Shown: piece by piece, positions 8,965-38,838 of the stretch | Layout: every line of letters begins with the position of its first letter | How positions within the stretch are numbered: position 1 is the first letter of the stretch | Source: Pseudomonadota bacterium | Lineage (GTDB): Bacteria; Campylobacterota; Campylobacteria; Campylobacterales; Sulfurimonadaceae | Direction of reading: 5' to 3' | Length of the DNA: 64,000 nucleotides | Assembly: GCA_043797085.1 (NCBI GenBank) | Contig: JAZDQA010000008.1 | Span: forward strand, 96,001 to 160,000 | Notes under the pieces: model-generated | What the model was told of the DNA's origin: nothing | Databases searched by the model: none | The model's input: only the letters and a program-made list of their open reading frames with translations | Position numbers and translations under genes: made by a program

Positions 8965-9000
8965 ATATGTCGGATAATATCATCCATCAAGGAGCAATCA

Positions 9001-14019: not shown

Positions 14020-14029
14020 AAGGGATGAA

Positions 14030-15004: not shown

Positions 15005-15103
15005 TTTATTAATTTTTATTAACATTATAGATTAATTTACGCTATAATACTTTAAATAAATTTTTATTAACATAATTATGCTTTTCTAAAACGATGAGGA
15101 AAA

Positions 15104-21478: not shown

Positions 21479-22714
21479 ATGCTAATGCTCCCCGATATCG
21501 TTGAAATCAGAGACGGTGTCTATTTCACCGGTGCCTTTGACCCTAAAATCCGTACTTTTGACATCATTATGAAAACTGCCAATGGAAGTTCCTATAACAG
21601 TTATGTCGTTCGTGGAAGCGAAGGTGTTGCGGTTATGGATACCGTGAAAAAAGAGTTTTCAGATGATTTTTTTGCTCGACTTGAACGGGTATGCGATTAC
21701 GATGAAATTCGCTACATCGTCCTGCATCATCTTGAGCCTGACCACTCAGGAGCATTAATCGAGCTGATGAAGCGTGCGCCTGAAGCCCAGCTCATTATCT
21801 CAGGACGTGCGGTGATGATGCTTAAGGGAATTATTAAAACGGATATACCTTACGAGATTGCTACAACGGGAAAAATTATTTCACTGGGTGATAAAACTAT
21901 TGAGTTTTTAATGACGCCATTTTTACACTGGCCTGACACGATGAGCAGCTATTTACACGAAGAGAAGCTTCTTTTTAGTGGGGATGTGTTCGGAAGTCAT
22001 TATTATGACGAGCGTCTTTTTGACGATGATGTGGGCGATTTTATGTATGCTTTTCAATACTATTATGACCACATCATGCGCCCTTTTAAACAGCATGTGC
22101 TTAATGCCTTGGAACTGTATCGCAAGTTTGATATAGATATTATCGCACCCTTGCATGGACCCATTTTGCGTACGAATCCGATGAGTTACATCGATAAATA
22201 CGCTTTGTGGAGTTCTCAGTCCAAATTTCGTAAAAATGAACTGGGGATGAAAATGCTCTCGGTGTTTTATATCTCCAGCTATGACAATACGCATAAAATG
22301 GCGGAAAAAGTAACTGAAGGTGCGGATAGTGTTGCAGGAATACGGGCAAGTATGTATGATTTGGCATCATTGGATGAACACAATATGATCACACTGCTCG
22401 AAGAGTCCGATGCCATTATGATCGGTTCTCCTACGATTAATGGGGATGCTGTTAGACCTGCATGGGATTTATTGTCGTGTATGGCGTATTTGGAGAGCAT
22501 CGGTAAAATCGGTGCGACGTTTGGTTCTTATGGATGGACGGGAGAAGCTCCTGAAATGCTGCATGAACGGTTACGCGGGTTGAAATTTCGTGTGCCGTTG
22601 AAACCATTAAAAATCAAGCTGATCCCAACCGAAGAAGAGCTGGAAGGCTGTGTTGTATTTGGACGTGAGATTGCCGAGATTGCGATGGGAAAAATGATTG
22701 AGATAGACCTTTAG
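21479..22714 (+). CDS. fprA: Flavodiiron protein (FprA, A-type flavoprotein; O2/NO reductase)
   Basis: GSSYNSY, HLEPDHSG, PFLHWPD, GDVFGSH, PLHG; flavodoxin domain GSPT and FGSYGW. Confidence 0.9.
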   Translation: MLMLPDIVEIRDGVYFTGAFDPKIRTFDIIMKTANGSSYNSYVVRGSEGVAVMDTVKKEFSDDFFARLERVCDYDEIRYIVLHHLEPDHSGALIELMKRAPEAQLIISGRAVMMLKGIIKTDIPYEIATTGKIISLGDKTIEFLMTPFLHWPDTMSSYLHEEKLLFSGDVFGSHYYDERLFDDDVGDFMYAFQYYYDHIMRPFKQHVLNALELYRKFDIDIIAPLHGPILRTNPMSYIDKYALWSSQSKFRKNELGMKMLSVFYISSYDNTHKMAEKVTEGADSVAGIRASMYDLASLDEHNMITLLEESDAIMIGSPTINGDAVRPAWDLLSCMAYLESIGKIGATFGSYGWTGEAPEMLHERLRGLKFRVPLKPLKIKLIPTEEELEGCVVFGREIAEIAMGKMIEIDL

Positions 22715-24606
22715 TACTCAATAAACGTGAGTGATAGAACATCATTTTTATAGTTATCTTCTACTTTATATTCACGGTAGCCTTGAGATTGTGCAATACC
22801 TAAAAGATATTTTTTTCCGTCATAAGTGACAAAATGATGTGTTGTATTTTTGGAATTAAACCGTAAGATTTTCTCATCTAATTCCATTTTCTCCATAGGT
22901 TTAGCATTGAGATAGCTTGTGGATAATACAATTCCTTTGCGATCTATAAAACATGAAAAACCGCTTTTTTGTGATGGGAAGCTATCGTTTAATATTGCAT
23001 TAAATTGTGGAGCTGCATCGAAAACAATACCGATTCCCCCTAAAATTTTATTTTTATTTTGAATTGTTGCACTGTAGATATAGGTTGCTTCGTTCTTGTA
23101 AAATGGTGTATTTTCAAATGGACTGACAAAATAGTTTTGTGAAGAAGTATTGTTAAAGATTTTACTGATGTAGTCCCCTGAAACTTTTTTACCGATGAGG
23201 GTTGAATCGTTTGATGAAGCGATAATAGTTGAATGACTATCATAAATAAAGAGGTTCGTATATACGGTATAAAGGGAATTAATATACGCTAGAACGTCAT
23301 GCAGTCGTTGGCTGTCAGGAATGTCTCGTGAGAGTTCTTTTTCAAATATCGGAGTCATCGCCCACCATCGACAGTCATTTGCCCGTTCGTATAGATTTCG
23401 ATCCATAATTTCGATAGCAAGATTTGCGGATGCTTTTGCATCAAAAATAAGTCCATCCATGATGGTGTTTTCAAGATTAGTTACTGTGTCTTTAATCGTG
23501 GAAAGGATGGAAGAGCTGACGGTACGTAAATTATCCAGGACGGGTGTTAGGACATATACCCGTTCTTTGGATGCGATGAGCTCACCATTAATGATAACAT
23601 CACTCAAATCTTCAATCACATCATCCGCTTTTCGTATAATAGATTTAATGTTATCGTCCAAAGTGCTTTTTTGACTGATAGGGTCTTTTATAGGCGGATT
23701 TTGGGTACTTCTTTTGACATTGATATATGCAATACTATTCCAGGATGTGCCGTAGTATCCTTCGTAGCCTTTTGTTTTTGCTGATATAAAAAGATTCCCA
23801 TCATGATATGAAATTTCTGAATTAATCATTCCTTTTCGATACTCTTTTAATATTTGGTTCGATTCATTAGAAGAGGAGCTGATCACCTCTTTACCGTCGG
23901 TAAAAAAGATATGTTCATTCGGATTTAATAGGGATGAAAAAATACGATTCATCTCATCTTCAAAACGAAAACATAAAATTAAAACACCTATTGCTTGATT
24001 ATTATGAGTGATTTTTTGGGCGAATAAGAGTGTTTTATTTTGAGTTGAAAAAAGATCGCTATGGGCATATTGTTCAATGTATCCATCATTTTGTAAAGCA
24101 TTATTTATAATGGGATCGGAACTAGCGGTAATTGAATTCGTTTCATTAATATTGAGTCGAATGTTCCCTTGCGTGTCGGTGATGATTATTTCATTGTAGA
24201 CACTGTATTTCATCGTGTATTCAATCAAACGTTCTTGCAGTGCTTCTGAAGTGTTATTTTCATTTAAAAATTCAATTATGGCTGTATCGGTTGCTAAAAA
24301 GCCGACATCAGCTGTTCGTTCAAAGAGATTTCGGATTAGGATATCGATACTGATCTGGGCTTTAGCGCGGAGCTCTTCGGTATATTTTTTTAAATTTTCA
24401 CGAATCAGGAGCGGGATAAGCTCTGTTTTTAAATCACTAAAGGTCTCGATCGTTTTTTCGGTAAAAGAGAAAAGATTTGCCGCTTTTTCGAGAGCACAAA
24501 TTTTTCCTGTGAGAATAATTTTTTTTAGGAATCGGTTTTGATCATCGAGAAGTTTTACACTGTTTTCAATAAATGGAAAAATTGTTAAAAATTTTGAATA
24601 GTCCAT
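22711..24606 (-). CDS. Soluble Cache-like sensor protein with an internal duplication; no output domain recognised
   Basis: Paired motifs RNLFERTADVGFLA / RNLYERANDCRWWA and YSVY/YTVY; no TM segment seen. Confidence 0.6.
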   Translation of the reverse strand: MDYSKFLTIFPFIENSVKLLDDQNRFLKKIILTGKICALEKAANLFSFTEKTIETFSDLKTELIPLLIRENLKKYTEELRAKAQISIDILIRNLFERTADVGFLATDTAIIEFLNENNTSEALQERLIEYTMKYSVYNEIIITDTQGNIRLNINETNSITASSDPIINNALQNDGYIEQYAHSDLFSTQNKTLLFAQKITHNNQAIGVLILCFRFEDEMNRIFSSLLNPNEHIFFTDGKEVISSSSNESNQILKEYRKGMINSEISYHDGNLFISAKTKGYEGYYGTSWNSIAYINVKRSTQNPPIKDPISQKSTLDDNIKSIIRKADDVIEDLSDVIINGELIASKERVYVLTPVLDNLRTVSSSILSTIKDTVTNLENTIMDGLIFDAKASANLAIEIMDRNLYERANDCRWWAMTPIFEKELSRDIPDSQRLHDVLAYINSLYTVYTNLFIYDSHSTIIASSNDSTLIGKKVSGDYISKIFNNTSSQNYFVSPFENTPFYKNEATYIYSATIQNKNKILGGIGIVFDAAPQFNAILNDSFPSQKSGFSCFIDRKGIVLSTSYLNAKPMEKMELDEKILRFNSKNTTHHFVTYDGKKYLLGIAQSQGYREYKVEDNYKNDVLSLTFIEY

Positions 24607-24746: not shown

Positions 24747-24761
24747 CGAACAATAATTGCA
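24747..24761 (+). promoter_or_regulatory. Non-canonical sigma54-like motif for the nifQ operon
   Basis: CG-AACAATAATT-GC-A, 30 nt before the ATG. Confidence 0.65.
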
Positions 24762-24791: not shown

Positions 24792-25121
24792 ATGAGTGAA
24801 CTCGACATCTTACGTCATGAAGTTGAAAGCTATTTGAAAAAATACGCTATTAATGAGGAAGCACGGTATATTATTGCTCCCTTGATTGCTAGAAAATCAC
24901 TGGAAATGAATCACCTCTATCAAGATTTAGGCTTTAAAAGCCGCTCTCAGATGGGTGCGTATATGGCAGAGCATTTCCCTCACTTAGCCGAACTTAAACC
25001 CAAAGATAAACTCTGGAAAAAATTTCTCTATGATGCTATTGGCAAAGTAGCACCTGCGTGTGCGACGTGTAATGACCAAGAGCATTGCTTTACGTGTCTC
25101 ATAGCCGAGGCGAGCGCGTGA
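24792..25121 (+). CDS. nifQ: Molybdenum-processing protein NifQ (short form)
   Basis: NHLYQDLG...HFP.LA...WKKFLY and C-terminal CATC....HCF. Confidence 0.85.
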   Translation: MSELDILRHEVESYLKKYAINEEARYIIAPLIARKSLEMNHLYQDLGFKSRSQMGAYMAEHFPHLAELKPKDKLWKKFLYDAIGKVAPACATCNDQEHCFTCLIAEASA

Positions 25122-26131
25122 AGACACCATCAATCACGACCACAGAACTCTATCGTCATCTCGATACTCTGATCGCGGCTGATATTCCTGTATTTATTCA
25201 TGGCTCTCCGGGGATTGGAAAATCGTACATTGTTGCTGATATAGCAGTAAAGCATGGATTACAGCTTGTCGATGTCCGTCTCTCACAGATGGATCCGGTC
25301 GATTTACGTGGTGTTCCTGCAATTCGTGATGAGCAGACGGTATGGATGGCTCCCGTTTTTTTCCCGAAAGACCAAAATTCAAGCGGGATACTCTTCCTCG
25401 ATGAACTAAACTCTGCACCTCCCTCAGTGCAAGCGGCGATTTATCAGTTGGTATTGGATCGTAAGATGGGTGAGTATTCACTGCCAAAAGGGTGGCGTAT
25501 CATTTGTGCAGGGAACCGCATATCCGATCGGGGTGTCGTGTTTCGTCTCCCGACACCGTTAGCCAATCGGATGGTACATCTCAGTGTAGAAGCACGATTT
25601 GAGGATTTTAAACTCTTTGCAATTCGTGAGGGATTGCACTCGTTTGTGATTGGATTTTTAGGATTCCGTCCCGATTTACTTACCTCAGAACCCATCAGTG
25701 ATGATGACAGCAATCCTGCATTTGCAACACCGCGAAGCTACCATATGCTTTCACATATCCTCAAACATAATGAGAATACTGCGAACATTGCTCCTATTAT
25801 TTACGGTCTTATCGGTTACGGTGCAGGGATTGAGTTTTTATCGTATGTGAAGGTGTACGAAAAACTCCCCGATGTCGGGGCAATTTATCGAGGTGAATAC
25901 CCGAGTGTTGATAAAAGTGAACCGGCACTGCTGTATGCTCTCGTTTCGGCGATGGTGGAACTGTATCGTGGAAGTGCAGAGCAAACGACACATTTATTTG
26001 GTTTTGCTCAAAAATTGCCCACCGAATTTGGGGTAATGCTGATCAAAGATACCATTGTTAAAGATGAAAATATTGCAATGTGTTCTGAATTCGACGAGTG
26101 GATCGAGCGCTATGGCGACTACATCCTTTAA
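25118..26131 (+). CDS. MoxR-like/AAA_5 AAA+ ATPase (copy 1)
   Basis: HGSPGIGKS, DLRG.P, LFLDELN, AGNR, LANR, FATPRS; GTGA overlap with the nifQ stop. Confidence 0.88.
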   Translation: MKTPSITTTELYRHLDTLIAADIPVFIHGSPGIGKSYIVADIAVKHGLQLVDVRLSQMDPVDLRGVPAIRDEQTVWMAPVFFPKDQNSSGILFLDELNSAPPSVQAAIYQLVLDRKMGEYSLPKGWRIICAGNRISDRGVVFRLPTPLANRMVHLSVEARFEDFKLFAIREGLHSFVIGFLGFRPDLLTSEPISDDDSNPAFATPRSYHMLSHILKHNENTANIAPIIYGLIGYGAGIEFLSYVKVYEKLPDVGAIYRGEYPSVDKSEPALLYALVSAMVELYRGSAEQTTHLFGFAQKLPTEFGVMLIKDTIVKDENIAMCSEFDEWIERYGDYIL

Positions 26132-27263
26132 TGATCAACTCGAAAAAATACGGGTTCAGTTTCTCTTTGATCACCCTTTTTTAAGCGTCCTAGCTCTCTC
26201 GATTCCCCACAAATACCAGAGCAATCTTCACCTCCTTTTTGAGACGGATGGGGTGAGTATTCGTGTTGATGAGAACAAAACGATGGGCTATGATGATGCC
26301 CGTCTCAAATATCTCTACGCTCATGTACTGCTCCATATCCTCCTCAAACACCCTTTTCGGATGAAGGGTCGGGAGAAGCCGACATGGAATCGCAGTTGTG
26401 ACATCGTGATCGGATTACTCCTTAACGATTTTCAGCGGGTGGGTAGTGCGGATGAAGAGGCAATAGTGATTGAGTCGTTTCACGACAAAAGTGTCGAAGA
26501 GGTATACCACGCCCTCTATCGTGAGAGTAATGAAGGAGAAGGAAAGCAAAGCGAAGAGAATCCGACACAGCAAAAAATGGACATCGTCGAGCATGAAGGA
26601 GATACCAAGGTTGCAGAAGAAGAGATCGATGCCCTGATCATCCAAGCGATGGGTGCAGCGCGCAAGCAGGGGAATATCCCAGCATCGTTGCTGGAGATGT
26701 TCGATGAGATCACCAAGCCTTCTATTGATTTGCATACGCTCTTACACACCTACATGACAGAGAGTTTTTTCGATAAAGAGTCTGATTTCTCTCATCCGAA
26801 TCGCCGTTTTATCCATCAGGGACTTTATCTTCCCGGATACCGCTATGATCGCAACCGTTTGAGTTTTTTTATCTTTTTGGATCGCTCTATGAGTATTACG
26901 GGGGAAGTTTTTTCACGCTTTTTAGGGATTATCGACTCGATTGTTCGCATGAGCCATGATTTCGAGGTGAGTGTGATCCCATTCGATGAGAGGGTCTATA
27001 CGGAAGAAAAAAAGAGCTACGATGCACAGTCAATATTGCCTAATATTAACTGTGCAAAAGGGAACGGTGGAACGCAATTCGCTCCCGTATTGGAGTATCT
27101 GAATCTTCATGCAGGAGAAAAGAACCTCGCCATAATCTTAAGCGACGGTTATTTCACGGTGGAGAAAGCGCCTGCTATGCAGACCCTTTTTTTGCTCAGT
27201 GAGAAAAAAAATTTAAAAAGGTTTGAACGCTATGGAGACGCCGTCTACTTTGACTTATCGTGA
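26112..27263 (+). CDS. DUF2201-type metallopeptidase-like/VWA protein (copy 1)
   Basis: PNRRF...LYLP, MIDAS DRSMS, GGT, SDG; HExxH position reads HVLLH. Confidence 0.82.
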   Translation: MATTSFNDQLEKIRVQFLFDHPFLSVLALSIPHKYQSNLHLLFETDGVSIRVDENKTMGYDDARLKYLYAHVLLHILLKHPFRMKGREKPTWNRSCDIVIGLLLNDFQRVGSADEEAIVIESFHDKSVEEVYHALYRESNEGEGKQSEENPTQQKMDIVEHEGDTKVAEEEIDALIIQAMGAARKQGNIPASLLEMFDEITKPSIDLHTLLHTYMTESFFDKESDFSHPNRRFIHQGLYLPGYRYDRNRLSFFIFLDRSMSITGEVFSRFLGIIDSIVRMSHDFEVSVIPFDERVYTEEKKSYDAQSILPNINCAKGNGGTQFAPVLEYLNLHAGEKNLAIILSDGYFTVEKAPAMQTLFLLSEKKNLKRFERYGDAVYFDLS

Positions 27264-27945
27264 TCATATTGAAACTCTAAAAGACGATTTGGATTTCGAG
27301 GAGCAGGGTGATGCTATTTACTTGCATCATGAGGATGATGATGCACGACTGCTGTGGGCATTTCATCGTCCCAGCGGTTCCCATCCCGTCCAAGTGGGAG
27401 ACCCGAACACCGACGTAGCAATTATGGCGTTCAATCATTCACGACTAGGGGCATTTGAGCGTTTTACGCGTCTTAATCCATCTGTTATCAGCGATCCTGA
27501 TTTACGCCGTCATATCCGTAACCGTAGTCGAATGCTTTTTCGTGCTCTTGTGGATAACGATTTTAGCGAACTGTTGGAAGTATTGAATCTTTACCCTGTT
27601 TTTATCGATCAAGCGTGTGATCAGATGATTAACGGTCGTATTTGGAATGAGCATTATGCCTCACCCTTGCGTGCATCACAGTTTTTAGATGTAGCGAATG
27701 AACAGATACATGAGAAACTTGCCGAGGGAGTGATTCGCCGCCTACGACCGCTTAAACACCAAACATTTGATGAGGCGAAAGGTCTTTTATCCGAGTTGGT
27801 AAGTCAAGTACAAAAGTTGCATTCAGTGATCAAAGTGCACTATGTCAAAGAGTTTGAAACATGGATGAAGAGTGAGAAACTTCATCCGCTTCAAGTGATT
27901 GTACTGACGAAACAAATTGCCCTATTGAAGGAATCCCATGACTGA
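27232..27945 (+). CDS. Hypothetical protein in the nifQ operon
   Basis: ORF overlapping both neighbours; no recognised motif. Confidence 0.7.
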   Translation: METPSTLTYRDHIETLKDDLDFEEQGDAIYLHHEDDDARLLWAFHRPSGSHPVQVGDPNTDVAIMAFNHSRLGAFERFTRLNPSVISDPDLRRHIRNRSRMLFRALVDNDFSELLEVLNLYPVFIDQACDQMINGRIWNEHYASPLRASQFLDVANEQIHEKLAEGVIRRLRPLKHQTFDEAKGLLSELVSQVQKLHSVIKVHYVKEFETWMKSEKLHPLQVIVLTKQIALLKESHD

Positions 27946-28180
27946 AATGAAACTCAAAGTGATGAAAACGATCTTTAACCTCAGCGATGAATGGGAATAC
28001 AACATTTACGAATCCGATGATATCGCCGAATACGCTCAAATGGACAAAACCGAAGTTAAAAACATCATCTCAGAACTTTATGAGGAGGGATATTTGGGTG
28101 AGTGTATGACTGTGGGAGACGATGGATTCGATACTTTTTACCTCAACCGTCGCGGACGTGCAGTCATCGGGATAGAGTAA
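27938..28180 (+). CDS. Small acidic hypothetical protein, possibly winged-helix
   Basis: DIAEYAQMDKTEVKNIISELYEEGYL...YLN.RG pattern. Confidence 0.65.
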   Translation: MTEMKLKVMKTIFNLSDEWEYNIYESDDIAEYAQMDKTEVKNIISELYEEGYLGECMTVGDDGFDTFYLNRRGRAVIGIE

Positions 28181-28611
28181 TGAGGAAGCTCGTCGTGTTT
28201 TATGAGAAGCCTTTTTGTGCTGCTAATGCTAAACAAAAGCAGATATTGCGATCCAGTGGCTGTACCCTCATCGAGCGCAATCTTCTCGAACACGGATTGG
28301 ACGCAGAGGGACTTCGCAGTTTTATGGGGGATACACCAGTTATTGATTGGTTTAATCCTGCTGCCCCCGCGATTAAAAACGGTGAGATTTTTCCAAACGC
28401 TTTAGATAAAGCAGCGGCGATGGAACTGCTGATGAGCGATCCAATCTTGATTCGCCGACCATTGATGATTATCGGAACTGAAAAACTGTGTGGTTTTGAT
28501 GCGGTAAAAGTAGCTGAAATTCTCGATAGAACTGTCGAACCGATGCCAAAGATAAACTGTATGGAAAAAGGGTGCTTGGAGACTTCAGAATTAAAGAACA
28601 ATGGCAGCTAA
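28180..28611 (+). CDS. nifO: Nitrogenase-associated ArsC/Spx-like protein (NifO-like)
   Basis: FYEKPFC..N.KQK..L, WFNPAAP.IK.GEI, PILIRRPLM, GFD; ATG overlaps the upstream TAA. Confidence 0.75.
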   Translation: MRKLVVFYEKPFCAANAKQKQILRSSGCTLIERNLLEHGLDAEGLRSFMGDTPVIDWFNPAAPAIKNGEIFPNALDKAAAMELLMSDPILIRRPLMIIGTEKLCGFDAVKVAEILDRTVEPMPKINCMEKGCLETSELKNNGS

Positions 28612-28803
28612 TTGCTGATTGGATGATTATAAGAAATTATGGTTAATTAAGTTTGCTATAAAGGGTTCATTATATTCCAACAAAAAGGATTGAAGAGTCC
28701 CGTCGTTTTCAAAATTTGTAAACACAATTTTTTTTGTTATCTTTTTAAGAGTTTTCTGCTAGTATATTTATTATTTGTAAGACATCTTGAAAAAAGAAGT
28801 ATT

Positions 28804-31389
28804 ATGCGGAATCTTAATCTTACCAAACAGCTTTTTTTGATCATTAGTGCTTTTATTTTGTTTGCCGTCGTTTTTATGACGTTTCATCTCTATTATCAAA
28901 CTTCTTCACTCATTGAAAAACGTGCGATAAGCCGCTCGAAATCTCTTCAAACTTACTTTATGTCGATGCGGTACATTTATCATAATCAGTTTTTAAACAG
29001 CGGATTGGAGTTAAACGATTCTACGGTCGGTTTTTTACCCGCTCATGCGGCATCGTTTATCAGCGATGAATTTTCCAAACGGACCCAAGATGGTATTTCG
29101 ATACGCAATGTCTCTGACCGTCCTCGCAATCCTACCAATATGGCCGATTCGGACGAATTGAGAGCGATGAAAGCTTTCGAACAAAATCCTGAGCTCAAAG
29201 AGCGCTTTACGAACATCCGCCAAAACAATCAAGACTATTTTTTTTATGCCGCACCTATCAAAATCGAACCTTATTGCATTCAGTGTCACGGAAAAAAAGA
29301 GGAAGTTCTCCCCTACATCGCCGGTCGATATGAAACCGCATATAATTATAAGGTAGGAGATATTCGAGGCATCACCAGTATCAAAATCCCGAAACAATTA
29401 ATTGCAAAAGAGACACTATCGATCTTTTGGACAGAAACCATTCTCAATTTGGCAATCATAGCACTGCTATTGGGGATGATTTACTATGTAATTCGTTTGT
29501 TCACACGACGAGATATCGAATACAAGCATCTGTTAGAAGAAGAAGTTCGTAATCGTACCGCAGATCTCGAAGAGACTGCAAAGAAACTTGAAGAATCAAA
29601 TCGCTATCAGCAGCATTTATTCTCGATTCTCCGCACGGTTGCTGATAGCAACAAAATTCTCATCACAACTCAATCACTTGAAGAGCTAATCGAAAAAACA
29701 GCACAGTGTTTAGAAGAGAATCCCTCTTTCTCTATAGTTCGGATCTCTTTGCTGGAAAATGAACATTTGAATCTAAAGGTTTTATTCGGGCTTGAAGTTG
29801 ATTGGGATATCCTGCCGATTGAAAAGAGTGTTTTGAATACCAATCAGCCTTCAATAATCAGCGATTTTTCATCAACTGTATCCGAAACGTGTAGGGTAAA
29901 CGTAGAGAGATTTCAGATTACGGGAATGTATGTTTCACCGTTGAGAAAAGACTATTACGCATCTGAAGCGTTCGGTGTCATGATGATTTGCACGACACAA
30001 CCGGGCGGTTTTACGGATGAAGAGGGTGCAATGATCGATGAACTCTCCGGAGATTTAGGCTTTGCCATCAATTCCTTTTATCAACGAGAAGATATTGTCA
30101 AACTTTCTTATTTTGATCCATTGACCGATTTGCCAAACCGTAGGCTGTTTATTGAACGATTGACTCATGCTATGCTCACCAGTGCACGGACGTTACAATA
30201 CGCAGGTTTGCTATTCATCGATTTAGATCATTTTAAAGGGGTTAATGATTTAAAAGGGCACTATGCCGGTGATAGTGTTTTAAAAATGATGGCTCAGCGA
30301 TTGTTGAGTGTTTTACGGCAAAACGATATTATCGCACGTTTTGGCGGAGATGAATTTGTCGTATTGATAGAGAATTTAGGAAAAACACAACACGAAGCGG
30401 CATTATCAGTTCAAGCAACCGTGACAAAAATTCTTGAGGTATCCAAAGAACCATTTATAATTGACGATCAATTGTTTTATCTAAGTGCTAGTGTCGGTAT
30501 CGTGTTGTTTTATGATGATGAATATACGATGGATCAATTATTCACGTATGCAGACAGTGCTATGTATGCCGCAAAAAATAGTGGACGAAATACTGCCCGT
30601 TTTTATGATTCAGCGTTACAAGAGACGATGAGTGCACAAGTAAAGTTGATACAAGATTTATGTATCTCTATGTCTAATAATGATTTTTATTTAGTCTATC
30701 AAGAGCAGGTTAATAATGAAGGTGATACGGTTGGAGTCGAAGCGCTGATCCGATGGCAGCATCCAAACAAAGGGATCATATCGCCTCTTGAATTTATTCC
30801 GATTGCTGAAACTTCCGGATTAATCATTCCTTTGGGAGGGTGGATAATGCATCAAGCAATTTGGCAGCTTGTGAACTGGAAAAATGATCCGATTAAACAA
30901 CATTGGCGTATCTCAGTCAATGTCAGCCCTAAGCAGTTTGAAGAAGAGGATTTTGTTCCTAAACTGCAACGATTAATGGAAGAAATACCATTTACAGCAT
31001 CTCAACTCCGTCTCGAACTGACTGAGGGGTTGTTGATTCAAAATGCACAAAAAGCGATGGATAAAATCAACATACTTAAAAGCCTTGGGTATACATTATC
31101 GATTGATGATTTCGGAACCGGTTATTCGAGTTTATCGTATCTAAAAAATCTTCCGATTGATGAACTCAAGATCGATCAATCATTTATCAAAGCTCTCTCA
31201 ACCAGTGATTCGGATAAAACAATTGTACAAACGGTTATTACGATGGGGCATACATTTGGATTGGAAGTCATCGCCGAAGGGGTTGAAACGGCTGAGCAAT
31301 GTGAAATACTCAAAGCGATGGGATGCGATATTTACCAAGGCTATCTTTTCAGTCGACCTCAGAAAGCAGAATATTACAATGTGGTGTGA
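28804..31389 (+). CDS. DUF3365 (c-heme CxxCH) sensor-GAF-GGDEF-EAL protein
   Basis: Two TM segments; VSDRPRNP.N; CIQCH; RFGGDEF; VEALIRW; IDDFGTGYSSL. Confidence 0.88.
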   Translation: MRNLNLTKQLFLIISAFILFAVVFMTFHLYYQTSSLIEKRAISRSKSLQTYFMSMRYIYHNQFLNSGLELNDSTVGFLPAHAASFISDEFSKRTQDGISIRNVSDRPRNPTNMADSDELRAMKAFEQNPELKERFTNIRQNNQDYFFYAAPIKIEPYCIQCHGKKEEVLPYIAGRYETAYNYKVGDIRGITSIKIPKQLIAKETLSIFWTETILNLAIIALLLGMIYYVIRLFTRRDIEYKHLLEEEVRNRTADLEETAKKLEESNRYQQHLFSILRTVADSNKILITTQSLEELIEKTAQCLEENPSFSIVRISLLENEHLNLKVLFGLEVDWDILPIEKSVLNTNQPSIISDFSSTVSETCRVNVERFQITGMYVSPLRKDYYASEAFGVMMICTTQPGGFTDEEGAMIDELSGDLGFAINSFYQREDIVKLSYFDPLTDLPNRRLFIERLTHAMLTSARTLQYAGLLFIDLDHFKGVNDLKGHYAGDSVLKMMAQRLLSVLRQNDIIARFGGDEFVVLIENLGKTQHEAALSVQATVTKILEVSKEPFIIDDQLFYLSASVGIVLFYDDEYTMDQLFTYADSAMYAAKNSGRNTARFYDSALQETMSAQVKLIQDLCISMSNNDFYLVYQEQVNNEGDTVGVEALIRWQHPNKGIISPLEFIPIAETSGLIIPLGGWIMHQAIWQLVNWKNDPIKQHWRISVNVSPKQFEEEDFVPKLQRLMEEIPFTASQLRLELTEGLLIQNAQKAMDKINILKSLGYTLSIDDFGTGYSSLSYLKNLPIDELKIDQSFIKALSTSDSDKTIVQTVITMGHTFGLEVIAEGVETAEQCEILKAMGCDIYQGYLFSRPQKAEYYNVV

Positions 31390-31426
31390 TTTGGAAGTGT
31401 AACCTAAGAGAGTGTGAATAAGTTTC

Positions 31427-31460
31427 TCATCCCATACTTTATGCTAGATACGGGATGACG
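31427..31460. terminator. Hairpin between convergent genes, probably a degenerate CGTC-family element
   Basis: TCATCCCATA-N12-TACGGGATGA followed by CG; the end GGGATGACGGAG resembles GGGAATGACGGAG at 12844. Confidence 0.45.
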
Positions 31461-31467
31461 GAGGTGG

Positions 31468-32028
31468 TTATACAGCTCCGAAAGCAAGTTTTCCTTGAGC
31501 GGTTTGAGATGCTTTAATCTCTTCGTAGGTTTTATCGGCAAGACGAAGATTTGTACGTTTGAGCTCATTACAGACGGTATCGATTTTTTCTTTGTCTGAC
31601 AATTTTTTCAAATCACCTTTTGAGAGATCAGCGTAATCGATGACTTCATTCCAAACAGAGCTTTCATCGAGTGCATACATGTAGAAAGTGATTCCTTCGT
31701 AAACAATTTTACCTTTTCCATTAATATCAGAGATAAAGAGAAGATATTTTCCCTCTGGAGTCAAATACTCTTTGTATTTTGCAACAAATCCTTCGAACAG
31801 GTTAATCGTAGGGAGTTCACACGCTAAAAAGTCGATAGTGTCGCTGTTAGTAGCGAGCAAGACTTGTTTGACAATCTCTTTAGGAGGAAGCGTGTTTTCT
31901 GATGAGATCACTTTACCCTCAGTCACGATGAGGCATCCACGATAGGCGTAGTTGTACGATTCAGTTTTGCCGTTGAATACGATCATCCACTCTAATTTGT
32001 TTTCGGCGATATAGTCTTGAATTGACAT
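31468..32028 (-). CDS. Hypothetical protein
   Basis: ORF with AAAGGA RBS before ATG 32028; no recognised motif. Confidence 0.72.
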   Translation of the reverse strand: MSIQDYIAENKLEWMIVFNGKTESYNYAYRGCLIVTEGKVISSENTLPPKEIVKQVLLATNSDTIDFLACELPTINLFEGFVAKYKEYLTPEGKYLLFISDINGKGKIVYEGITFYMYALDESSVWNEVIDYADLSKGDLKKLSDKEKIDTVCNELKRTNLRLADKTYEEIKASQTAQGKLAFGAV

Positions 32029-32060
32029 GGGGGTCCTTTGGGTTTGTATAATCAAGTCAA

Positions 32061-32075
32061 TACAATTATTGTTCT
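32061..32075 (-). promoter_or_regulatory. Weaker sigma54-like motif (GT instead of GC at -12)
   Basis: AG-AACAATAATT-GT-A, 32 nt before ATG 32028. Confidence 0.45.
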
Positions 32076-32082
32076 AGCTTTT

Positions 32083-32097
32083 CGTATGATAATTGCA
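32083..32097 (+). promoter_or_regulatory. Non-canonical sigma54-like motif for AAA+/VWA pair 2
   Basis: CG-TATGATAATT-GC-A; nearly identical to 36546-36560. Confidence 0.55.
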
Positions 32098-32111
32098 TTC
32101 CTTTGATTGTG

Positions 32112-32145
32112 AACGCCATCGGAATACATCCCGATTGGCTACGCT
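32112..32145 (-). repeat. 34-bp GTAG-tagged palindromic repeat (REP-like)
   Basis: Reverse complement AGCGTAGCCAATCGGGATGTATTCCGATGGCGTT; 32/34 identical to 36637-36670. Confidence 0.8.
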
Positions 32146-32208
32146 TGCCGCTATGGCACTGAAGCTTGCCTCATTCGAGGCAGAATATTTTCTGTATGAA
32201 GGAATAGA

Positions 32209-33204
32209 ATGAACCCTCAAAGTGCCAAACGATCCCTTGCTCATCTATGTGAACGTAAAGTTCCCGTCTTTTTATGGGGACCTCCGGGAATCGGTAAATC
32301 CTCTATTGTCGCTCAGATTGCACGTGAAGCGGGGATCGGCTTTATTGATTTGCGTCTCTCACTCCTCGATCCGACTGATTTACGCGGTATCCCTTTTTTT
32401 AACGCCAAAAACGACACAGCGATTTGGGCACCTCCCGCATTTTTACCGGATGGTCGTGAGGAAAAAGGGATATTGTTTCTCGATGAGCTCAACACTGCCG
32501 CACCGATGGTTCAAGCCTCTGCATATCAGTTAATATTAGACCGTAAAATCGGTGAATACAGACTTCCTGATGGATGGGCGATTATCGCTGCAGGGAATCG
32601 TGAGAGCGATCGAGGGGTGGTATTTCGCATGGCGGCACCGCTAGCAAACCGTTTTGTTCATTTGGAGATGGAGGCAAATGTGGCGGATTGGCGAAAATGG
32701 GCGATAGGTGCAGGGATAGAGCCTTCGATTATTGCGTATATCTCCCACCGTCCGGATGCACTGTTCGTCTTTAACTCAGAGAGCCGATCGTTTGCAACTC
32801 CTCGAACGTGGGCGTATGTACATGATATCATGGCTTCCAATCCTGAGGAAGATTTGGTGATGCCGATGGTTTCGGGGGCGATTGGGGAAGAGCTTGCCGC
32901 CTCGTATCTTGGATTTCGTCTCGTTGCCTCACAGTTACCTGATTTGGATGCGATACTGGAAGGGACATGCAGTGATGTTCCCACTGACCCCTCGGCATTG
33001 CACATTCTCTCTACGGCACTTACTATGCGGGTTAATGATTACACGGGGAATAAGAAGCTCAACAACCTTATCACCTATACGTTGAAACTTCCCGGTGAGT
33101 TTGCTGTAATGATTATCCAAGACCTCAGAGCACGTAAAATCGAACTCGACCATGTTGAGAGCTGGCCGTTGTGGATGCGCCAGTTTAATACACTGCTACG
33201 ATAA
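32209..33204 (+). CDS. MoxR-like/AAA_5 AAA+ ATPase (copy 2)
   Basis: WGPPGIGKS, DLRGIP, LFLDELN, AGNR, LANRF, FATPRTW. Confidence 0.88.
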   Translation: MNPQSAKRSLAHLCERKVPVFLWGPPGIGKSSIVAQIAREAGIGFIDLRLSLLDPTDLRGIPFFNAKNDTAIWAPPAFLPDGREEKGILFLDELNTAAPMVQASAYQLILDRKIGEYRLPDGWAIIAAGNRESDRGVVFRMAAPLANRFVHLEMEANVADWRKWAIGAGIEPSIIAYISHRPDALFVFNSESRSFATPRTWAYVHDIMASNPEEDLVMPMVSGAIGEELAASYLGFRLVASQLPDLDAILEGTCSDVPTDPSALHILSTALTMRVNDYTGNKKLNNLITYTLKLPGEFAVMIIQDLRARKIELDHVESWPLWMRQFNTLLR

Positions 33205-34352
33205 TGTCGCACGAAGAACTTCTTTTACGGGCAAAAAGCCTTTTGAATGTGAAATATCCCTATTTCGGGATGCTGGCTTCACGGTTGCAACATGAACCAA
33301 GCGACACCGTATCAGGATATGCGAGTAATGGAAAACGGTTTATCTACAATGTCCAATTTTTGGAGCGTAGAAACGTCGAGGATGTGATGTTTATCCTCAC
33401 GAATGCCGTGATGCACCATGTCCTCTCCCATCAGCAGAGAAAACTCAATCGCAAAGGTAAGTTATGGCAGTTAGCGACCGACTACGCCATCAACAATCTC
33501 CTTTCCAAAAGCGGTCTGCATATCCCTATTGGGGCAAATTACAACAAAGAATACGAAGGTATGTACGCCGAAGAGATTTACGATGCACTTAAAAATGATG
33601 TAAATATTGGCGAGGGTGATGCCTTCGGTGAAAGTGGTGACAGTGCCCCCGAAGCTTCCACGATGGAGCAAGAGGATGATGACTCGTCAGGTTTTGCCAA
33701 TATTGACGGTATCGCGGATGAGCTTGACACCCAAGATGAATTGCAATGGCAATACGCCGCCTCGATCGCTCAGGAAGTAGCACAGCGTAAGGGATCTATG
33801 CCGTTGGGATTGGAGCGATTGGGGAAAAAGGTGAAGCCCAGCGATGTTGATTGGCGATTTGAACTTTATAATGCCGTCAACCGCCACATGCGCAACAACT
33901 ACGCCTTTATGCCTCCGAACAAAAAACATATCCATCGCGGAATAGCACTTCCATCCCTCACCAGTGATACTCTCAGTCTTTGTGTAGCCGTTGATACTTC
34001 CGGATCAATCGACGATCAGCTTTTGGGGGCATTTATGGAGGAGTTTAAAACCATCATGCAAAACTTTCCTTCCGTCAAAATCGAACTCATCATCGCCGAT
34101 GCCAAGGTGCATGCTCATCATACCTTCCAAGGGGGAGAACGGATGGATTTCGCGCTCAAAGGAGGAGGCGGAACCGATTATCGCCCGACGTTTGATTATG
34201 TCGAAGCGAATTTGCCGATGACGACAATGTTGTTGTATTTCACCGACGGGGAAGGGTCGTTTCCGCGTATTCCTCCAAATTATGAAGTGCTGTGGGCACT
34301 CTCACGAAAAGCAAAAGTTCCATTTGGACGGGGGATGGTAATTTTTAGTTAA
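33204..34352 (+). CDS. DUF2201-type metallopeptidase-like/VWA protein (copy 2)
   Basis: W.LATDYAIN, VDWR..L, MIDAS VDTSGSI, GGGGTDY.P, FTDG; HExxH position reads NAVMH. Confidence 0.85.
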   Translation: MSHEELLLRAKSLLNVKYPYFGMLASRLQHEPSDTVSGYASNGKRFIYNVQFLERRNVEDVMFILTNAVMHHVLSHQQRKLNRKGKLWQLATDYAINNLLSKSGLHIPIGANYNKEYEGMYAEEIYDALKNDVNIGEGDAFGESGDSAPEASTMEQEDDDSSGFANIDGIADELDTQDELQWQYAASIAQEVAQRKGSMPLGLERLGKKVKPSDVDWRFELYNAVNRHMRNNYAFMPPNKKHIHRGIALPSLTSDTLSLCVAVDTSGSIDDQLLGAFMEEFKTIMQNFPSVKIELIIADAKVHAHHTFQGGERMDFALKGGGGTDYRPTFDYVEANLPMTTMLLYFTDGEGSFPRIPPNYEVLWALSRKAKVPFGRGMVIFS

Positions 34353-34576
34353 AGATGATCGCTGTAATCGCAAGACCCATCGATCTCATGCATCTCTTTT
34401 ACTGATTTTTTCAAATCTGCTGCATATTGGGCCAAGAGCATGGCATCAACTTCACAATCCGCTGCGATAGCTATGATTTCGCTACTAGTGATGTCAGGGG
34501 AGCGTAGGCGTGCGAACTGATCGGCTGTGATGTTGATGTGAAATATTTTGTCGATGGAGTGAAGGGTGAGAATCAT
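34349..34576 (-). CDS. Hypothetical protein
   Basis: Coupled (ATGA overlap) to the upstream ORF. Confidence 0.6.
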   Translation of the reverse strand: MILTLHSIDKIFHINITADQFARLRSPDITSSEIIAIAADCEVDAMLLAQYAADLKKSVKEMHEIDGSCDYSDHL

Positions 34577-35058
34577 CCCTCCATGCTCCGTAATGCGGTG
34601 TTAATCTGCTCTAATGCCAGAGACTTGGCATTTTCTACCTCTTTGTTATCCCACCAGTATTCGATGATAGCGTGTTCAATCTGTTCGATTTGCTCCATAC
34701 GTAAGTTGACAAAAACTTCATTCGTGTTGATTTCATCGGGGCTGAGTCCTTTGGAAGCGGCAATTTTATTCAGCGTTTCGACGATGCTTTTTTCGAGCGG
34801 TTTTGGGGTGCTTTCTTCACGGGCGTGATCGATCCATGCGCGAATTTCGTCCTCTAGGTAATCATGTCCCCACACCTGATAACACAAAATACGATTTGGC
34901 GTATAGATGATAGTGTGATCTTCACTCAATACGTCAGAGGATTTGACATTTCCGTCGTAGATATAGACTTCCAGACGTTCATTGTCGCGCAGGGTGCAGG
35001 CTTGTTCAAAAGCCGCTCGGGCGTGTTTTAGCACTTCGCTTTTTAGATTTTCATTCAT
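34573..35058 (-). CDS. Hypothetical protein
   Basis: AGGAG RBS; 161 aa; no recognised motif. Confidence 0.72.
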   Translation of the reverse strand: MNENLKSEVLKHARAAFEQACTLRDNERLEVYIYDGNVKSSDVLSEDHTIIYTPNRILCYQVWGHDYLEDEIRAWIDHAREESTPKPLEKSIVETLNKIAASKGLSPDEINTNEVFVNLRMEQIEQIEHAIIEYWWDNKEVENAKSLALEQINTALRSMEG

Positions 35059-35067
35059 AGTGACTCC

Positions 35068-35289
35068 TTAAGATACTTTTGCATTATGATAGTCCCATAG
35101 CCGTTTGTAATGGCTGTCGAGCTCAGATAGGGTTGAATCGACGGTGATGAGTTCATTGGTACGATCAAATCGTTTATTGTTGGTCTCATACCAGTTTTCC
35201 ATCTCTATTTTGAGAACATTGCGCTTCGCAGCAGTTTGGGCGATGAGTTGACGTATCTCTTCCATCTCTGAGGTGATGATATATTCCAT
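35068..35289 (-). CDS. Hypothetical coiled-coil protein
   Basis: 73 aa helical ORF, first gene of a three-gene minus-strand unit. Confidence 0.68.
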   Translation of the reverse strand: MEYIITSEMEEIRQLIAQTAAKRNVLKIEMENWYETNNKRFDRTNELITVDSTLSELDSHYKRLWDYHNAKVS

Positions 35290-36636: not shown

Positions 36637-36670
36637 AGCGTAGCCAATCGGGACGTGTTCCGATGGCGTT
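36637..36670 (+). repeat. 34-bp GTAG-tagged palindromic repeat, second copy
   Basis: AGCGTAGCCAATCGGGACGTGTTCCGATGGCGTT. Confidence 0.8.
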
Positions 36671-36697: not shown

Positions 36698-37072
36698 ATG
36701 GCTGTAATGATTACTGATTTATGTATTAACTGTGACGCGTGTATCGACGAGTGTCCCGTAGCGGCAATCGCAAGTGAGGGTGATTCACCGCGTGATGATT
36801 GGGAATATACCTACGTCAAACCGGAAAAATGTATCGAGTGTGTCGGTCATGCTGAAGTTCCTGCGTGTGCAGCCGCCTGTCCTACGGAAGAGTGTATCGT
36901 GTGGGATATGCCGTATACGGCTGAGTTTAATGATTATTATGTGAACAGTTCGGATTATGCGATTGGTTCGAGCAAAAAACGAGGATTGCTTTCTCCGGAA
37001 GTCTCTCCTCAAACGTTCCGTGATGATATTTCGATTGAAATGCGTCAAGCACGTGAAGCGGTAGCCGTCTAA
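36698..37072 (+). CDS. 2[4Fe-4S] ferredoxin (FdxN/YfhL-like) with C-terminal extension
   Basis: CINCDACIDECP and CIECVGH....ACAAACP. Confidence 0.9.
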   Translation: MAVMITDLCINCDACIDECPVAAIASEGDSPRDDWEYTYVKPEKCIECVGHAEVPACAAACPTEECIVWDMPYTAEFNDYYVNSSDYAIGSSKKRGLLSPEVSPQTFRDDISIEMRQAREAVAV

Positions 37073-37453
37073 ATGTTAATCGCGTTCGCTTCATCGGATG
37101 GAATCTCTGTCAATCAACATTTTGGATGGTCGAAGAGTTTTGAGCTGTATCGTGTCACGCAAGAGACAGCCGAGTTTATCAAAACACTCGACAGCTCCCA
37201 AGACGCGATCGAAGACGAACACGAAAAGCTGGCGTACAAAATCGGGACGGTAAAAGAAGCAGATATCATGTTTTGCTCCCAAATCGGTCCGACGGCGTCG
37301 AAGATGGTGTTGGCTTCCAAAATTTATCCGATGCGTTCGGCAGAAAATGAACTTATTGAGGAAGCAATCAAAAAACTTCAAGAGTTATTATTGGGCAATC
37401 CGCCGCCGTGGTTGTTGCGAATTGTACACACAACAAAAGATAAGGAGATTTAA
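37073..37453 (+). CDS. nifX: NifX/NifB/NafY-family FeMo-cofactor-binding protein (NifX-like)
   Basis: IAFASSDG..VNQHFG, IG..A...V, LQELL.GNPPPWLLR. Confidence 0.75.
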   Translation: MLIAFASSDGISVNQHFGWSKSFELYRVTQETAEFIKTLDSSQDAIEDEHEKLAYKIGTVKEADIMFCSQIGPTASKMVLASKIYPMRSAENELIEEAIKKLQELLLGNPPPWLLRIVHTTKDKEI

Positions 37454-37455
37454 TT

Positions 37456-37851
37456 ATGTCAGTAATTATCGATGATACCTGTATCACGTGCGATGCGTGT
37501 TTACAACAATGTCCGGTCAATGCAATCTTAGATGATACCACAAGCCCGATGGGGAACAAACGTTATTACGTTGAACCGGAAAAATGTATCGAATGCGTCA
37601 GTGTGTATGATGATCCGCAATGTGCGGCGATTTGTCCGAGTATCGGATGTATTACGTGGGATATGCCTTTTACCAAAGAGTTCGATGCTCATTTTCTTAA
37701 TGAAGAGATCTATAAATTAGGGACAAAAAACGGTGTTCCAAAATCTCCCGCCTTTAGAGAGAAAAAATACCGCAAAGATATTCCTATCGAAATGCGTGGA
37801 GTAGGGCATATCGTCCAAGAAGAACCGGAAAACCTCGAAGAAGTGGGATAA
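37456..37851 (+). CDS. 2[4Fe-4S] ferredoxin, paralog of 36698-37072
   Basis: CITCDACLQQCP and CIECVS....PQCAAICP. Confidence 0.9.
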   Translation: MSVIIDDTCITCDACLQQCPVNAILDDTTSPMGNKRYYVEPEKCIECVSVYDDPQCAAICPSIGCITWDMPFTKEFDAHFLNEEIYKLGTKNGVPKSPAFREKKYRKDIPIEMRGVGHIVQEEPENLEEVG

Positions 37852-38368: not shown

Positions 38369-38439
38369 GATGGGATTTTAGCATAGGATTAAGGGTAAAA
38401 GAGTATTATAAGACAATAAAAAACATCAAAGGGGTGCAC

Positions 38440-38838
38440 ATGGGTGAGGGATTGGTACGATGCCGACAACGGATGGTCAACTACACCAAATCACTTGCTC
38501 ATCTACGTACTACAGTCGAAAAAGAGAGCCTCAACGAGATCGAAAAAGCGGGGTTGATTCAGTTTTTCGAGGTGGCATTTGAACTTTCGTGGAAAGTGAT
38601 GAAAGATTATCTCATCACTGAGGGTTATGATGTCAAAAGCCCACGTGAAGCGATCAAAACGGCGTTTGATTACGGACTGATAACAGATGGAGCCAAATGG
38701 CTCGAAGCTCTCGAAAAACGAAACCTCGCCGCCCACACCTATGATGAATCGATCCTCGATGAACTCGAAGAGTTGATAACTCACACCTATTATCCGATGA
38801 TGGAAGCTCTCAGAATCTCTCTCGAAGAGCGGCTATGA
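38440..38838 (+). CDS. HEPN / nucleotidyltransferase substrate-binding protein (HI0074 family)
   Basis: GLIQFFEVAFELSWKVMK, SPREAIK.AF, RNLAAHTY (RxxxxH). Confidence 0.9.
   Translation: MGEGLVRCRQRMVNYTKSLAHLRTTVEKESLNEIEKAGLIQFFEVAFELSWKVMKDYLITEGYDVKSPREAIKTAFDYGLITDGAKWLEALEKRNLAAHTYDESILDELEELITHTYYPMMEALRISLEERL

Follow-up and report, generated by a model that had tools for sequence, protein, structure and literature searches.

Which function brings two copies of a MoxR-like AAA+ ATPase, each paired with a protein carrying a VWA (von Willebrand factor type A) domain, into the nitrogen-fixation (nif) region of a bacterium whose closest protein relatives carry the label Sulfuricurvum? The question is raised by a stretch of 64,000 nucleotides (hereafter the window), corresponding to positions 96001-160000 of contig C8 of a 2.4-Mb genome, in which an earlier note, drawn from the sequence alone, had seen two such pairs, at 25118-27263 (pair 1) and 32209-34352 (pair 2), and had read them as an undescribed ATP-driven nitrogenase system. 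Both MoxR-like AAA+ and DUF2201/VWA pairs were recovered, with all their domains above Pfam cut-offs. The explanation favoured here, which is probably correct, is that both have been recruited into the nif regulon of Campylobacterota as accessory factors, where they would form a NifA-controlled, ATP-driven remodeller serving nitrogenase or its cofactor, possibly in the branch that handles molybdenum and the iron-molybdenum cofactor (Mo/FeMo-co). Since their close relatives occur almost only in nitrogenase-bearing bacteria, the pairs look like an undescribed helper system of nitrogen fixation. The genes at issue are the following.

24792..25121, plus strand: short NifQ, 109 aa, C-terminal Cys-rich domain only (PF04891)
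25118(GTG)..26131, plus strand: AAA1, MoxR-like AAA+ ATPase, 337 aa, with AAA_5, AAA_3 and AAA above Pfam cut-offs
26112..27263, plus strand: VWA1, 383 aa, DUF2201_N (zincin-like) plus VWA domain with metal ion-dependent adhesion site (MIDAS)
27232..27945, plus strand: hyp240, 237 aa, all-helical, conserved third component of no known family
27938..28180, plus strand: hyp80, small conserved open reading frame (ORF) after hyp240
28180..28611, plus strand: ArsC/Spx-like 'nitrogenase-associated protein' (TIGR01616)
32209..33204, plus strand: AAA2, MoxR-like AAA+ ATPase, 331 aa, with AAA_5 and AAA above cut-offs
33204..34352, plus strand: VWA2, 382 aa, DUF2201_N (with NAVMH) plus VWA/MIDAS

NifQ is matched by PF04891 (E 2.2e-19, 70.9 bits, cut-off 27) over profile positions 60-158 of 159. 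AAA1 scores 33.0 bits with AAA_5 (cut-off 22) and 30.0 with AAA_3 (cut-off 27), and AAA2 35.6 bits with AAA_5 (cut-off 22); PF13203 and PF09967 (cut-offs 23.2 and 26.4) give 84.6 and 43.1 bits for VWA1 and 105 and 79.8 bits for VWA2. The sole family signal of hyp80 is a sub-threshold match of winged helix-turn-helix type, and hyp240 has no match in Pfam, NCBIfam, PHROG or PADLOC. The ArsC-like gene matches TIGR01616 (nitro_assoc) at E 5.2e-38 and 129.9 bits (cut-off 109); the name nifO, used for it in the earlier note, was given by no tool.

The evidence that carries this explanation begins with co-occurrence. Two samples of related genomes, many of them fragmented metagenome bins, were profiled: 201 genomes from 26 families of the order, in which VWA1-type proteins were called at 35 % identity or more (generic homologues reach at most 29 %) and VWA2-type proteins at 54 % or more (generic homologues at most 47 %), and 151 Sulfurimonadaceae genomes, partly shared with the first sample. 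In the order sample, full-length nifD (76-100 % identity) was found in 44 of 201 genomes, with a fragment in G137 and a broken copy in G109 (genomes, contigs and loci are cited by G, C and L numbers). All 16 genomes with a VWA1-type protein (35-100 %, eight families) and all 10 with a VWA2-type protein (54-100 %) carry nifD. Within the family sample, which holds nifD in 64 genomes, VWA1-type genes in 58 and VWA2-type genes in 56 (both types together in 53), the carriers are nifD-positive in 52/58 and 52/56 cases, respectively, and in genus g80 the seven of 16 genomes that have nifD are the same seven that carry VWA1-type genes. The six VWA1-type carriers lacking nifD are all assemblies of 70 to 350 contigs; four of them have nifE- and nifN-like genes, and one has two adjacent nitrogenase-family genes. 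Cassette and nif genes also decay jointly: G109 (L092, C1:1410600-1430599) holds a decaying nif region in which only fragments remain of NifA, the flavodiiron gene, nifD, AAA1 and VWA1, and in G278, the sixth of these carriers, where no nitrogenase-family gene was found, AAA1 is cut to a 128-aa piece, both cases being counted in favour of a nif tie. The profiling, which could have spoken against such a tie, indicates that the clades of pair 1 and pair 2 are almost confined to nitrogenase-bearing genomes. The expectation that orthologues would be lacking in non-diazotrophs holds at this clade level but fails for the wider family, which is common in non-diazotrophs and phages.

Gene order provides the second line of evidence. 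An alignment-pattern scan for hyp240 through 185,579 species genomes returned 124 relatives, and the best 80 of the 124 were used; all 80 belong to Campylobacterota, and since the ranking is by similarity to the query, close relatives are favoured among them. Among 49 species loci that offer 7 kb or more of upstream sequence, VWA1 stands on the same strand in 48, AAA1 in 47 and nifQ in 42, while hyp240 comes immediately after a VWA1 orthologue in 67/71 loci with sufficient flank, hyp80 follows hyp240 in 69/78 (at least 400 nt downstream) and the ArsC-like gene follows hyp80 in 48/68; the neighbourhood conservation with nifQ that the earlier note proposed to check is borne out. AAA1 and VWA1 genes adjoin in 15/15 orthologous loci retrieved; those of AAA2 and VWA2, which overlap start and stop as ATGA, remain paired in 8/8. 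In the window, genes overlap at every junction from nifQ through the ArsC-like gene, the nifQ stop and AAA1 start sharing GTGA, AAA1 and VWA1 sharing 20 nt, VWA1 and hyp240 32 nt, and hyp240 and hyp80 8 nt, with the hyp80 stop and the ArsC-like ATG joined as TAATG at 28180, in agreement with the coupling to nifQ and the overlapping chain described previously. In the same-genus genome G195, nifQ-hyp80-ArsC-like occurs without AAA1-VWA1-hyp240 (the flavodiiron gene is also missing), and this natural indel defines the cassette as the three-gene unit AAA1-VWA1-hyp240. Neither hyp240 as a third conserved component nor a third, non-nif pair elsewhere in the genome had been noticed before. In G162, G216, L183 and L121 the two pairs are direct neighbours within one gene string. 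A conserved ORF of 62 to 64 aa, for which no counterpart was found in the window, precedes AAA1 in G023 (L083:8193-8388, with TTGGCATAACTTTTGCAT upstream of the 62-aa ORF) and in G192, G106, G145 and G162 (L085, L086, L090, L080).

By Nei-Gojobori estimates, AAA1, VWA1 and hyp240 are under strong purifying selection, with median dN/dS values against 7 or 8 Sulfuricurvum orthologues of 0.05, 0.04 and 0.09, respectively, these values being rough because dS is about 1 or above. By the same estimates, the de-catalysed N domain of VWA1 is conserved as strongly as the remainder (N domain 0.05, VWA domain 0.04). Across 43 sequences, hyp240 has 34 invariant columns, including many His, Asp, Glu, Arg and Ser residues and no Cys. 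A search of RNA runs matched only small shares of the stretch (0.00 to 0.12). Among four runs compared, one metatranscriptome contributed one 255-nt contig that lies on AAA1 (depth 2.1), which speaks neither for nor against expression, and three other 'RNA' runs are probably DNA, with contigs from relatives.

The third line of evidence comes from the region upstream of the cassette, where one element stands out.

24748..24761, plus strand: nif-type promoter-like motif GAACAATAATTGCA, about 45 nt upstream of nifQ

Pair 1 would accordingly be expressed from a predicted promoter with the same -24/-12-type motif as those of nifH, nifB and nifU. This motif, GAAC-N4-WTTGCA, occurs four times in the window against 0.47 expected, a count reached in 0/100 shuffles; all four copies (8951, 17796, 24748, 35348) lie on the plus strand just before nifU, the redoxin operon, nifQ and Sel1-NifU, and two more are found in the next 20 kb (L010 3499, 8978), before nifB and nifH. 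Since the motif was defined after the regions had been viewed, these counts speak for its specificity and do not amount to an independent discovery. A relaxed form, GAAY-N4-AWTGCA, lies about 45 nt before nifQ in 8/8 Sulfuricurvum loci that carry an inserted 631-aa gene (hyp631); the exact GAAC-N4-WTTGC was found before nifQ in only 1/7 other loci with this insertion, and in 1/11 among the rows listed. Upstream of cassettes unlinked to the nif region, GG-N8-TTGCA is present within 150 nt in 7/7 cases from four lineages (the AAA2 orthologues of G106, G145, G192 and G180, AAA1 of G180 and G021, and the 62-aa lead ORF of G023), the expectation by shuffles being about 1 to 2.6 per 17-20 kb on both strands. 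G180 and G106 each encode one Sigma54_activat protein (E at most 1e-20), 12 to 16 kb from nifD, so that this presumed NifA would be the sole activator available if the promoters work. The nif promoters of the present genome read AGAAC, CGAAC or TGAAC followed by N4-WTTGCA, the first G of the canonical sigma-54 -24 'GG' being replaced; in other genera of the order, GGAAC-N5-ATGCA stands before nifH. Two other patterns were discarded: the canonical sigma-54 TGG-N8-TTGCW occurs four times in the window against 4.68 expected, with none upstream of the modules, and a loose GG-N10-GCW scan of L093 stayed at chance level.

Pair 2 had likewise been credited with a nif-type motif of its own, and its upstream region contains the following.

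31468..32055, minus strand: hyp195, divergently transcribed neighbour of pair 2, no family match
32115..32144, plus strand: REP-like intergenic repeat, 30 nt, internal hairpin, 5 genome copies at up to 5 mismatches
32154..32169, plus strand: TGGCAC-N6-TTGC, the motif previously taken as nif-type, GG..GC spacing 11 (canonical 10)

That claim does not hold for this genome, as the spacing is one base too long, the motif is missing upstream of the 89 %-identical orthologue in G195, and it abuts the REP-like repeat. A scan of the window for GAAC-N4-WTTGCA found none upstream of AAA2. The repeat has a second, inverted copy at 36638-36667 (minus strand, 2 mismatches), and metagenome contigs pile up at 32115-32144, many of them breaking there. 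Homologues of hyp195 adjoin AAA2 orthologues in G195 (90 %), G176 (38 %) and many Sulfuricurvum loci.

Several observations weigh against recruitment of both pairs into the nif regulon. Pair 2 is without a recognisable nif promoter in this genome, and both promoter motifs were defined post hoc. In the order sample, 28 of the 44 nifD-positive genomes lack VWA1-type and 34 lack VWA2-type genes, and 9 of 64 in the family sample lack both; moreover, the genomes are related rather than independent, so that the counts overstate the number of events. In G278, which has no nitrogenase-family gene, VWA1, hyp240, hyp80 and an intact VWA2-type gene persist. At 11 of the 80 loci an insert of 0.6 to 4.5 kb separates AAA1 from VWA1. 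Six distant VWA1-type loci (G180, G021, G023, G007, G192, G014; about 40 % identity) have a canonical nif gene adjacent in no case and are instead accompanied by an AAA_15+DUF3226 pair, a PD-(D/E)XK transposase, a restriction-modification pair or an integrase, and the VWA2-type loci of G106 and G180 are unlinked to nif genes. Finally, the wider family is very large and common in non-diazotrophs and phages, and its size, the phage copies and the existence of PHROG families imply that a general, non-nif function is ancestral. The distant cassettes nevertheless still hold hyp240, a hyp240 paralogue of about 190 aa and small nif-cluster genes, namely an ArsC-like homologue (38 %) in G023 and hyp113-like genes in G106, G145 and G192. 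What stands of the nitrogenase-system proposal is thus the tie to nitrogen fixation, supported by co-occurrence, synteny with nifQ and the pair 1 motif, whereas its generality and the promoter of pair 2 do not stand: both modules are accessory, not essential or general.

The loci with an insert between AAA1 and VWA1 are L109 (5675-9000), L110, L113, L120, L127, L131, L132, L146, L157, L166 and L175. The match to VWA1 is N-terminally shorter by about 40 residues in L109 and L113, and an Rfam scan of the L109 insert returned no family.

How the two pairs relate to each other bears on whether they should be treated as one system. Among the ATPases, AAA1 shares 40 % identity with AAA2 and 41 % with a third one, and VWA1 is 22 % identical to both VWA2 and a third VWA protein, while VWA2 and the third VWA protein share 41 %. 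This third pair, AAA3 7237-8241 and VWA3 8235-9320 (contig C1, L012:5984-10563), sits between a 420-aa gene without known family and a PIF1-like helicase, with no nif genes nearby. In a quick maximum-likelihood tree of 55 rows, with SH-aLRT support only, VWA1-type proteins form one clade on a long branch (SH-aLRT 100), and VWA2-type proteins form another (SH-aLRT 100), nested within generic Campylobacterales DUF2201 homologues that otherwise cluster by taxonomic family. By sequence, the two pairs are distant paralogues from separate clades and not close twins; the designation 'twin paralogues' was right as to their homology, but VWA proteins sharing only 22 %, clade membership and the existence of a third pair tell against the twinning.

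The motifs recorded earlier were all found. Walker A (GxPGIGKS), Walker B (ILFLDELN) and the arginine motif (PLANR) are invariant in all three ATPases, and the MIDAS DxSxS reads DRSMS in VWA1 and DTSGS in VWA2. The HExxH of the DUF2201 N domain is replaced differently in each, by HVLLH in VWA1 (H-V-L-L-H-x4-H, three His kept) and by NAVMH in VWA2, so that neither carries the HExxH with catalytic Glu that characterises zincin metallopeptidases. In Campylobacterales, the Glu is absent from 15/15 genomes with VWA1-type proteins, which have H[VTIS]LLH-x4-H, and from 10/10 with VWA2-type proteins, which have N[AC]VMHH; generic, mostly non-nif homologues in Campylobacterales retain HExxH in 0/26 cases. 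A phmmer search with VWA1 against 1.84 billion cluster representatives returned 8489 representative clusters at E<=1e-3 and only 19 at E<=1e-30; the VWA1 type comprises 13 full-length representatives (36-59 % identity, 215-502 bits), the next matches reaching at most 140 bits. When VWA1 and VWA2 were aligned with 145 representatives of 300 aa or longer (147 rows), DxSxS is kept in 147/147, and HExxH, in line with its being described as typical of the family, in 121, with HxxxH in 23 and the second His only in 3. The 23 HxxxH rows include VWA1 and all 13 VWA1-type representatives, each of which shows H-x-[LI]-L-H without Glu. Judged from these alignments, loss of the catalytic Glu with retention of all three His is clade-defining for VWA1, whereas the loss of HExxH in VWA2 is common to its non-nif relatives and not special to the nif-linked pair.

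Structural comparisons place these proteins near known motors. The closest solved relatives of AAA1 by sequence are the midasin AAA domains (E 4.4e-12) and NorQ (E 2.8e-4). The AF2 model of VWA1 (pLDDT 78.7, from a 41-sequence alignment) matches VWA folds over residues of about 205-383 in both Foldseek and VIA, the match lists being filled by VWA. In Foldseek, the model matches an integrin I domain at E 1.2e-4 and NorD in NorQD (9qhd_G) at E 2.1e-4; in VIA, it matches factor B (Z 12.2, rmsd 2.9, 154 aligned), the BchD VWA domain 2x31_A (Z 9.9, rmsd 3.1, 134 aligned) and NorD 9qh8_G (Z 9.6, rmsd 5.0, 173 aligned). For hyp240, the AF2 model (pLDDT 93.1) is all-alpha with 15 helices; its best Foldseek match in the PDB, to HEAT-like repeats at E 0.059, is not convincing, VIA-align wide reached no more than Z 7.9 (62 residues) and gave no assignment, and the protein atlas gave scores of at most 0.85 to unnamed clusters.

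Nitrogenase assembly is among the best-studied metalloenzyme pathways, and, to our knowledge, its accessory set (NifB, EN, Q, X, Y, Z, W, M and others) contains no MoxR/VWA motor, although such motors are needed for other difficult metal sites, as in nitric oxide reductase, the chelatases and CO dehydrogenase. The earlier statement that no such nif factor has been described agrees with the literature as represented in listings and abstracts, in which subscription journals are thinly covered, and the literature in this partial coverage likewise yielded no characterised member of the DUF2201 family. The nearest known system is NorQ/NorD, a MoxR AAA+ ATPase and a VWA protein that insert non-haem FeB into nitric oxide reductase. 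As in NorQ/NorD, each pair is a two-gene ATPase plus VWA/MIDAS unit beside genes of the metalloenzyme that it would serve. Unlike NorD, however, VWA1 and VWA2 have DUF2201_N, a degenerate zincin-like domain, at the N-terminus; the likeness of AAA1 to NorQ is limited to about 100 residues; and the context is nif rather than nor, with an extra helical protein, hyp240. No nor genes occur in the annotated window, and the pairs cannot be assigned to NorQ/NorD. Class I chelatases (BchI/BchD, CobS/CobT) and CoxD/CoxE, which acts on the Mo-Cu cluster of CO dehydrogenase, are likewise ATP-driven AAA+/VWA units that enable metal insertion, but no BchH/CobN-like catalytic subunit or Cox gene lies near pairs 1 and 2 in the annotated window. 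Both pairs do belong to the group of DUF2201 proteins with MoxR-like ATPases (COG 'predicted metal-dependent peptidase'; phrog_1314 plus phrog_1297), with MIDAS kept, and differ from its generic members, which mostly retain HExxH and whose neighbours, in phages as in this genome, are helicases and not nif genes.

By analogy with NorQ/NorD and the chelatase motors, a ring of AAA1, possibly mixed with or beside AAA2, would pull on the VWA protein, whose MIDAS site would grip the target. In the working model of NorQ/NorD, the ATPase ring pulls on its VWA partner (PMC13036017). The N domain of VWA1 would bind or hold rather than cleave, given that its three-His metal site is kept and the catalytic Glu is lost, and hyp240 may be an adaptor or a client. 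The two pairs possibly work as heteromers, as suggested by the 53 genomes with both types and the adjacency in four. The most likely client would lie in the Mo/FeMo-cofactor branch, from NifQ to NifEN/NifDK, which is favoured because the cassette lies between two Mo-handling genes, nifQ and the ArsC-like gene. As second choice, nitrogenase would be protected or repaired in the presence of oxygen, since the upstream operon encodes a flavodiiron protein (FDP), a redoxin and a nitroreductase-like protein.

A more specific version, rather unlikely and argued from analogy, holds that AAA1-VWA1-hyp240 together with AAA2-VWA2 acts in the nitrogenase pathway as a NorQD- or chelatase-like insertase for metal or cofactor, driven by ATP. 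The three-His site of VWA1 would then hold a metal species and its MIDAS would dock on NifEN or NifDK, while the motor would either pass Mo on from the short NifQ to FeMo-co or a precursor of it, or else open the apo-MoFe protein so that the cofactor can enter. If true, this would be the first energy-dependent chaperone step of such a kind known for nitrogenase. More generally, a cassette that is conserved, strongly selected, placed behind a nif-type promoter and limited to diazotrophs would bring a new kind of player into nitrogenase assembly, give a first functional handle on the large uncharacterised DUF2201 family, and provide candidate helper genes for microaerobic diazotrophy and nif cluster transfer.

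The alternative that survives best, an unlikely one, accepts that the modules belong to a NifA/sigma-54 regulon and assigns them as client some other protein of diazotrophy instead of nitrogenase or its cofactor, candidates being the enzymes of oxygen/ROS defence encoded in the same operon (flavodiiron protein, redoxin, nitroreductase-like protein) or else a protein of nitrogen assimilation or regulation. Co-occurrence and promoters agree with this reading equally well, and in Sulfurimonadaceae the cassette lies distally in a long operon, Redoxin-(Ank)-Nitroreductase-AlaDH-hyp116-FDP-NifQ-AAA1-VWA1-hyp240, with the FDP gene directly before nifQ in 28 of the 54 loci whose flank suffices. The immediate, translationally coupled neighbours of the cassette, however, are nifQ and the ArsC-like gene, and the unlinked cassettes (G023; G106, G145 and G192) travel with small nif-cluster genes and not with FDP or redoxin; both points count against this reading.

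A second alternative, which we regard as quite improbable, is that the pairs are generic AAA/DUF2201 modules derived from phages or mobile elements, with a function that has nothing to do with nitrogen fixation (for example replication-linked or conflict-related), and that they are carried along in a horizontally moving nif island. Full-length homologues of VWA2 occur in at least 500 phage records, and two phage homologues retain HExxH (HELLH and HETWH). Both AAA1 and AAA2 match phrog_1297 'ATPase' (AAA1 over its full length at E 1.1e-92, AAA2 at E 3e-96), and their DUF2201 partners match phrog_1314 over the full length, a family whose label 'HNH endonuclease' looks wrong; AAA1 also has a weak match to the CobS-like phrog_249 'porphyrin biosynthesis' (E 3.1e-11). 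The replication region of Vibrio phage D505 (L106) runs ATPase, DUF2201, small ORF, Dda-like helicase, three ORFs, DNA polymerase, an order echoed by the ATPase-DUF2201-helicase arrangement of the third pair on contig C1, where the PIF1-like helicase follows. In G162 the two pairs are separated by an SF1 helicase, the distant VWA1-type loci are near mobile or defence-type genes, and the VWA2 type is nested among generic Campylobacterales homologues. Such an origin leaves unexplained why the unlinked copies (G023, G106, G145, G192, G180, G021, G007) still occur only in nifD-positive genomes, why sigma-54-type promoters precede them in genomes with a single activator, and why the modules decay jointly with nif. 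In addition, PADLOC-DB 2.0 gave no defence model at E<=0.001 for AAA1, VWA1, hyp240, hyp80, AAA2, VWA2 or hyp195, and hyp240 is without a phage family.

That the modules regulate nitrogen fixation, as an ATP-driven switch that remodels NifA, PII or nitrogenase and so inactivates or reactivates it, is highly improbable, since family scans show no regulatory domain in AAA1, VWA1, hyp240, AAA2 or VWA2 and the characterised MoxR/VWA pairs act on enzymes and cofactors (PMC9976466, PMC13036017), even though no NifL-type partner is seen in the region, a GAF-type NifA lies nearby, hyp80 has its weak winged-helix-type match and the region is rich in signalling genes.

The surroundings of the two modules, which form part of a dispersed nif neighbourhood, include the following genes assigned by a family scan of the window proteins.

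9001-9978: NifU
16075-17703, minus strand: NifA-like GAF/sigma-54 activator
36698-37851: NifX-like and ferredoxin genes

The nifB, nifV and nifHDK genes lie 3.6 to 13 kb past the window end, and nifN-like and nifE-like genes are found upstream of the window and on contig C3. GGDEF/EAL signalling genes are unusually dense in and around the nif region (13195-16078, 28690-31389, 41493-43208, 49743-50990, 53444-56860, 58131-60038), the one at 28690-31389 standing between the two AAA/VWA modules. A HepT/MNT-type toxin-antitoxin pair and an AbiH-like gene also occur within the nif neighbourhood (38434-39922).

The 631-aa gene hyp631 (22711-24606, minus strand), without a Pfam match, lies between the flavodiiron gene and nifQ. 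It is variable, being present in some Sulfuricurvum species and absent in others, and contigs from three sequencing runs connect 22704 straight to 24792. Its homologue in G096, 36 % identical, has dCache and CheW-like domains. In relatives, an operon of hyp73, the hyp240 paralogue of about 190 aa and hyp161 is divergent from Sel1-NifU (L078:2038-3414 and many loci); at the corresponding place in the window (34349-35289, minus strand) this paralogue is absent and hyp161 is followed by hyp75. In the distant cassettes the paralogue comes straight after hyp240.

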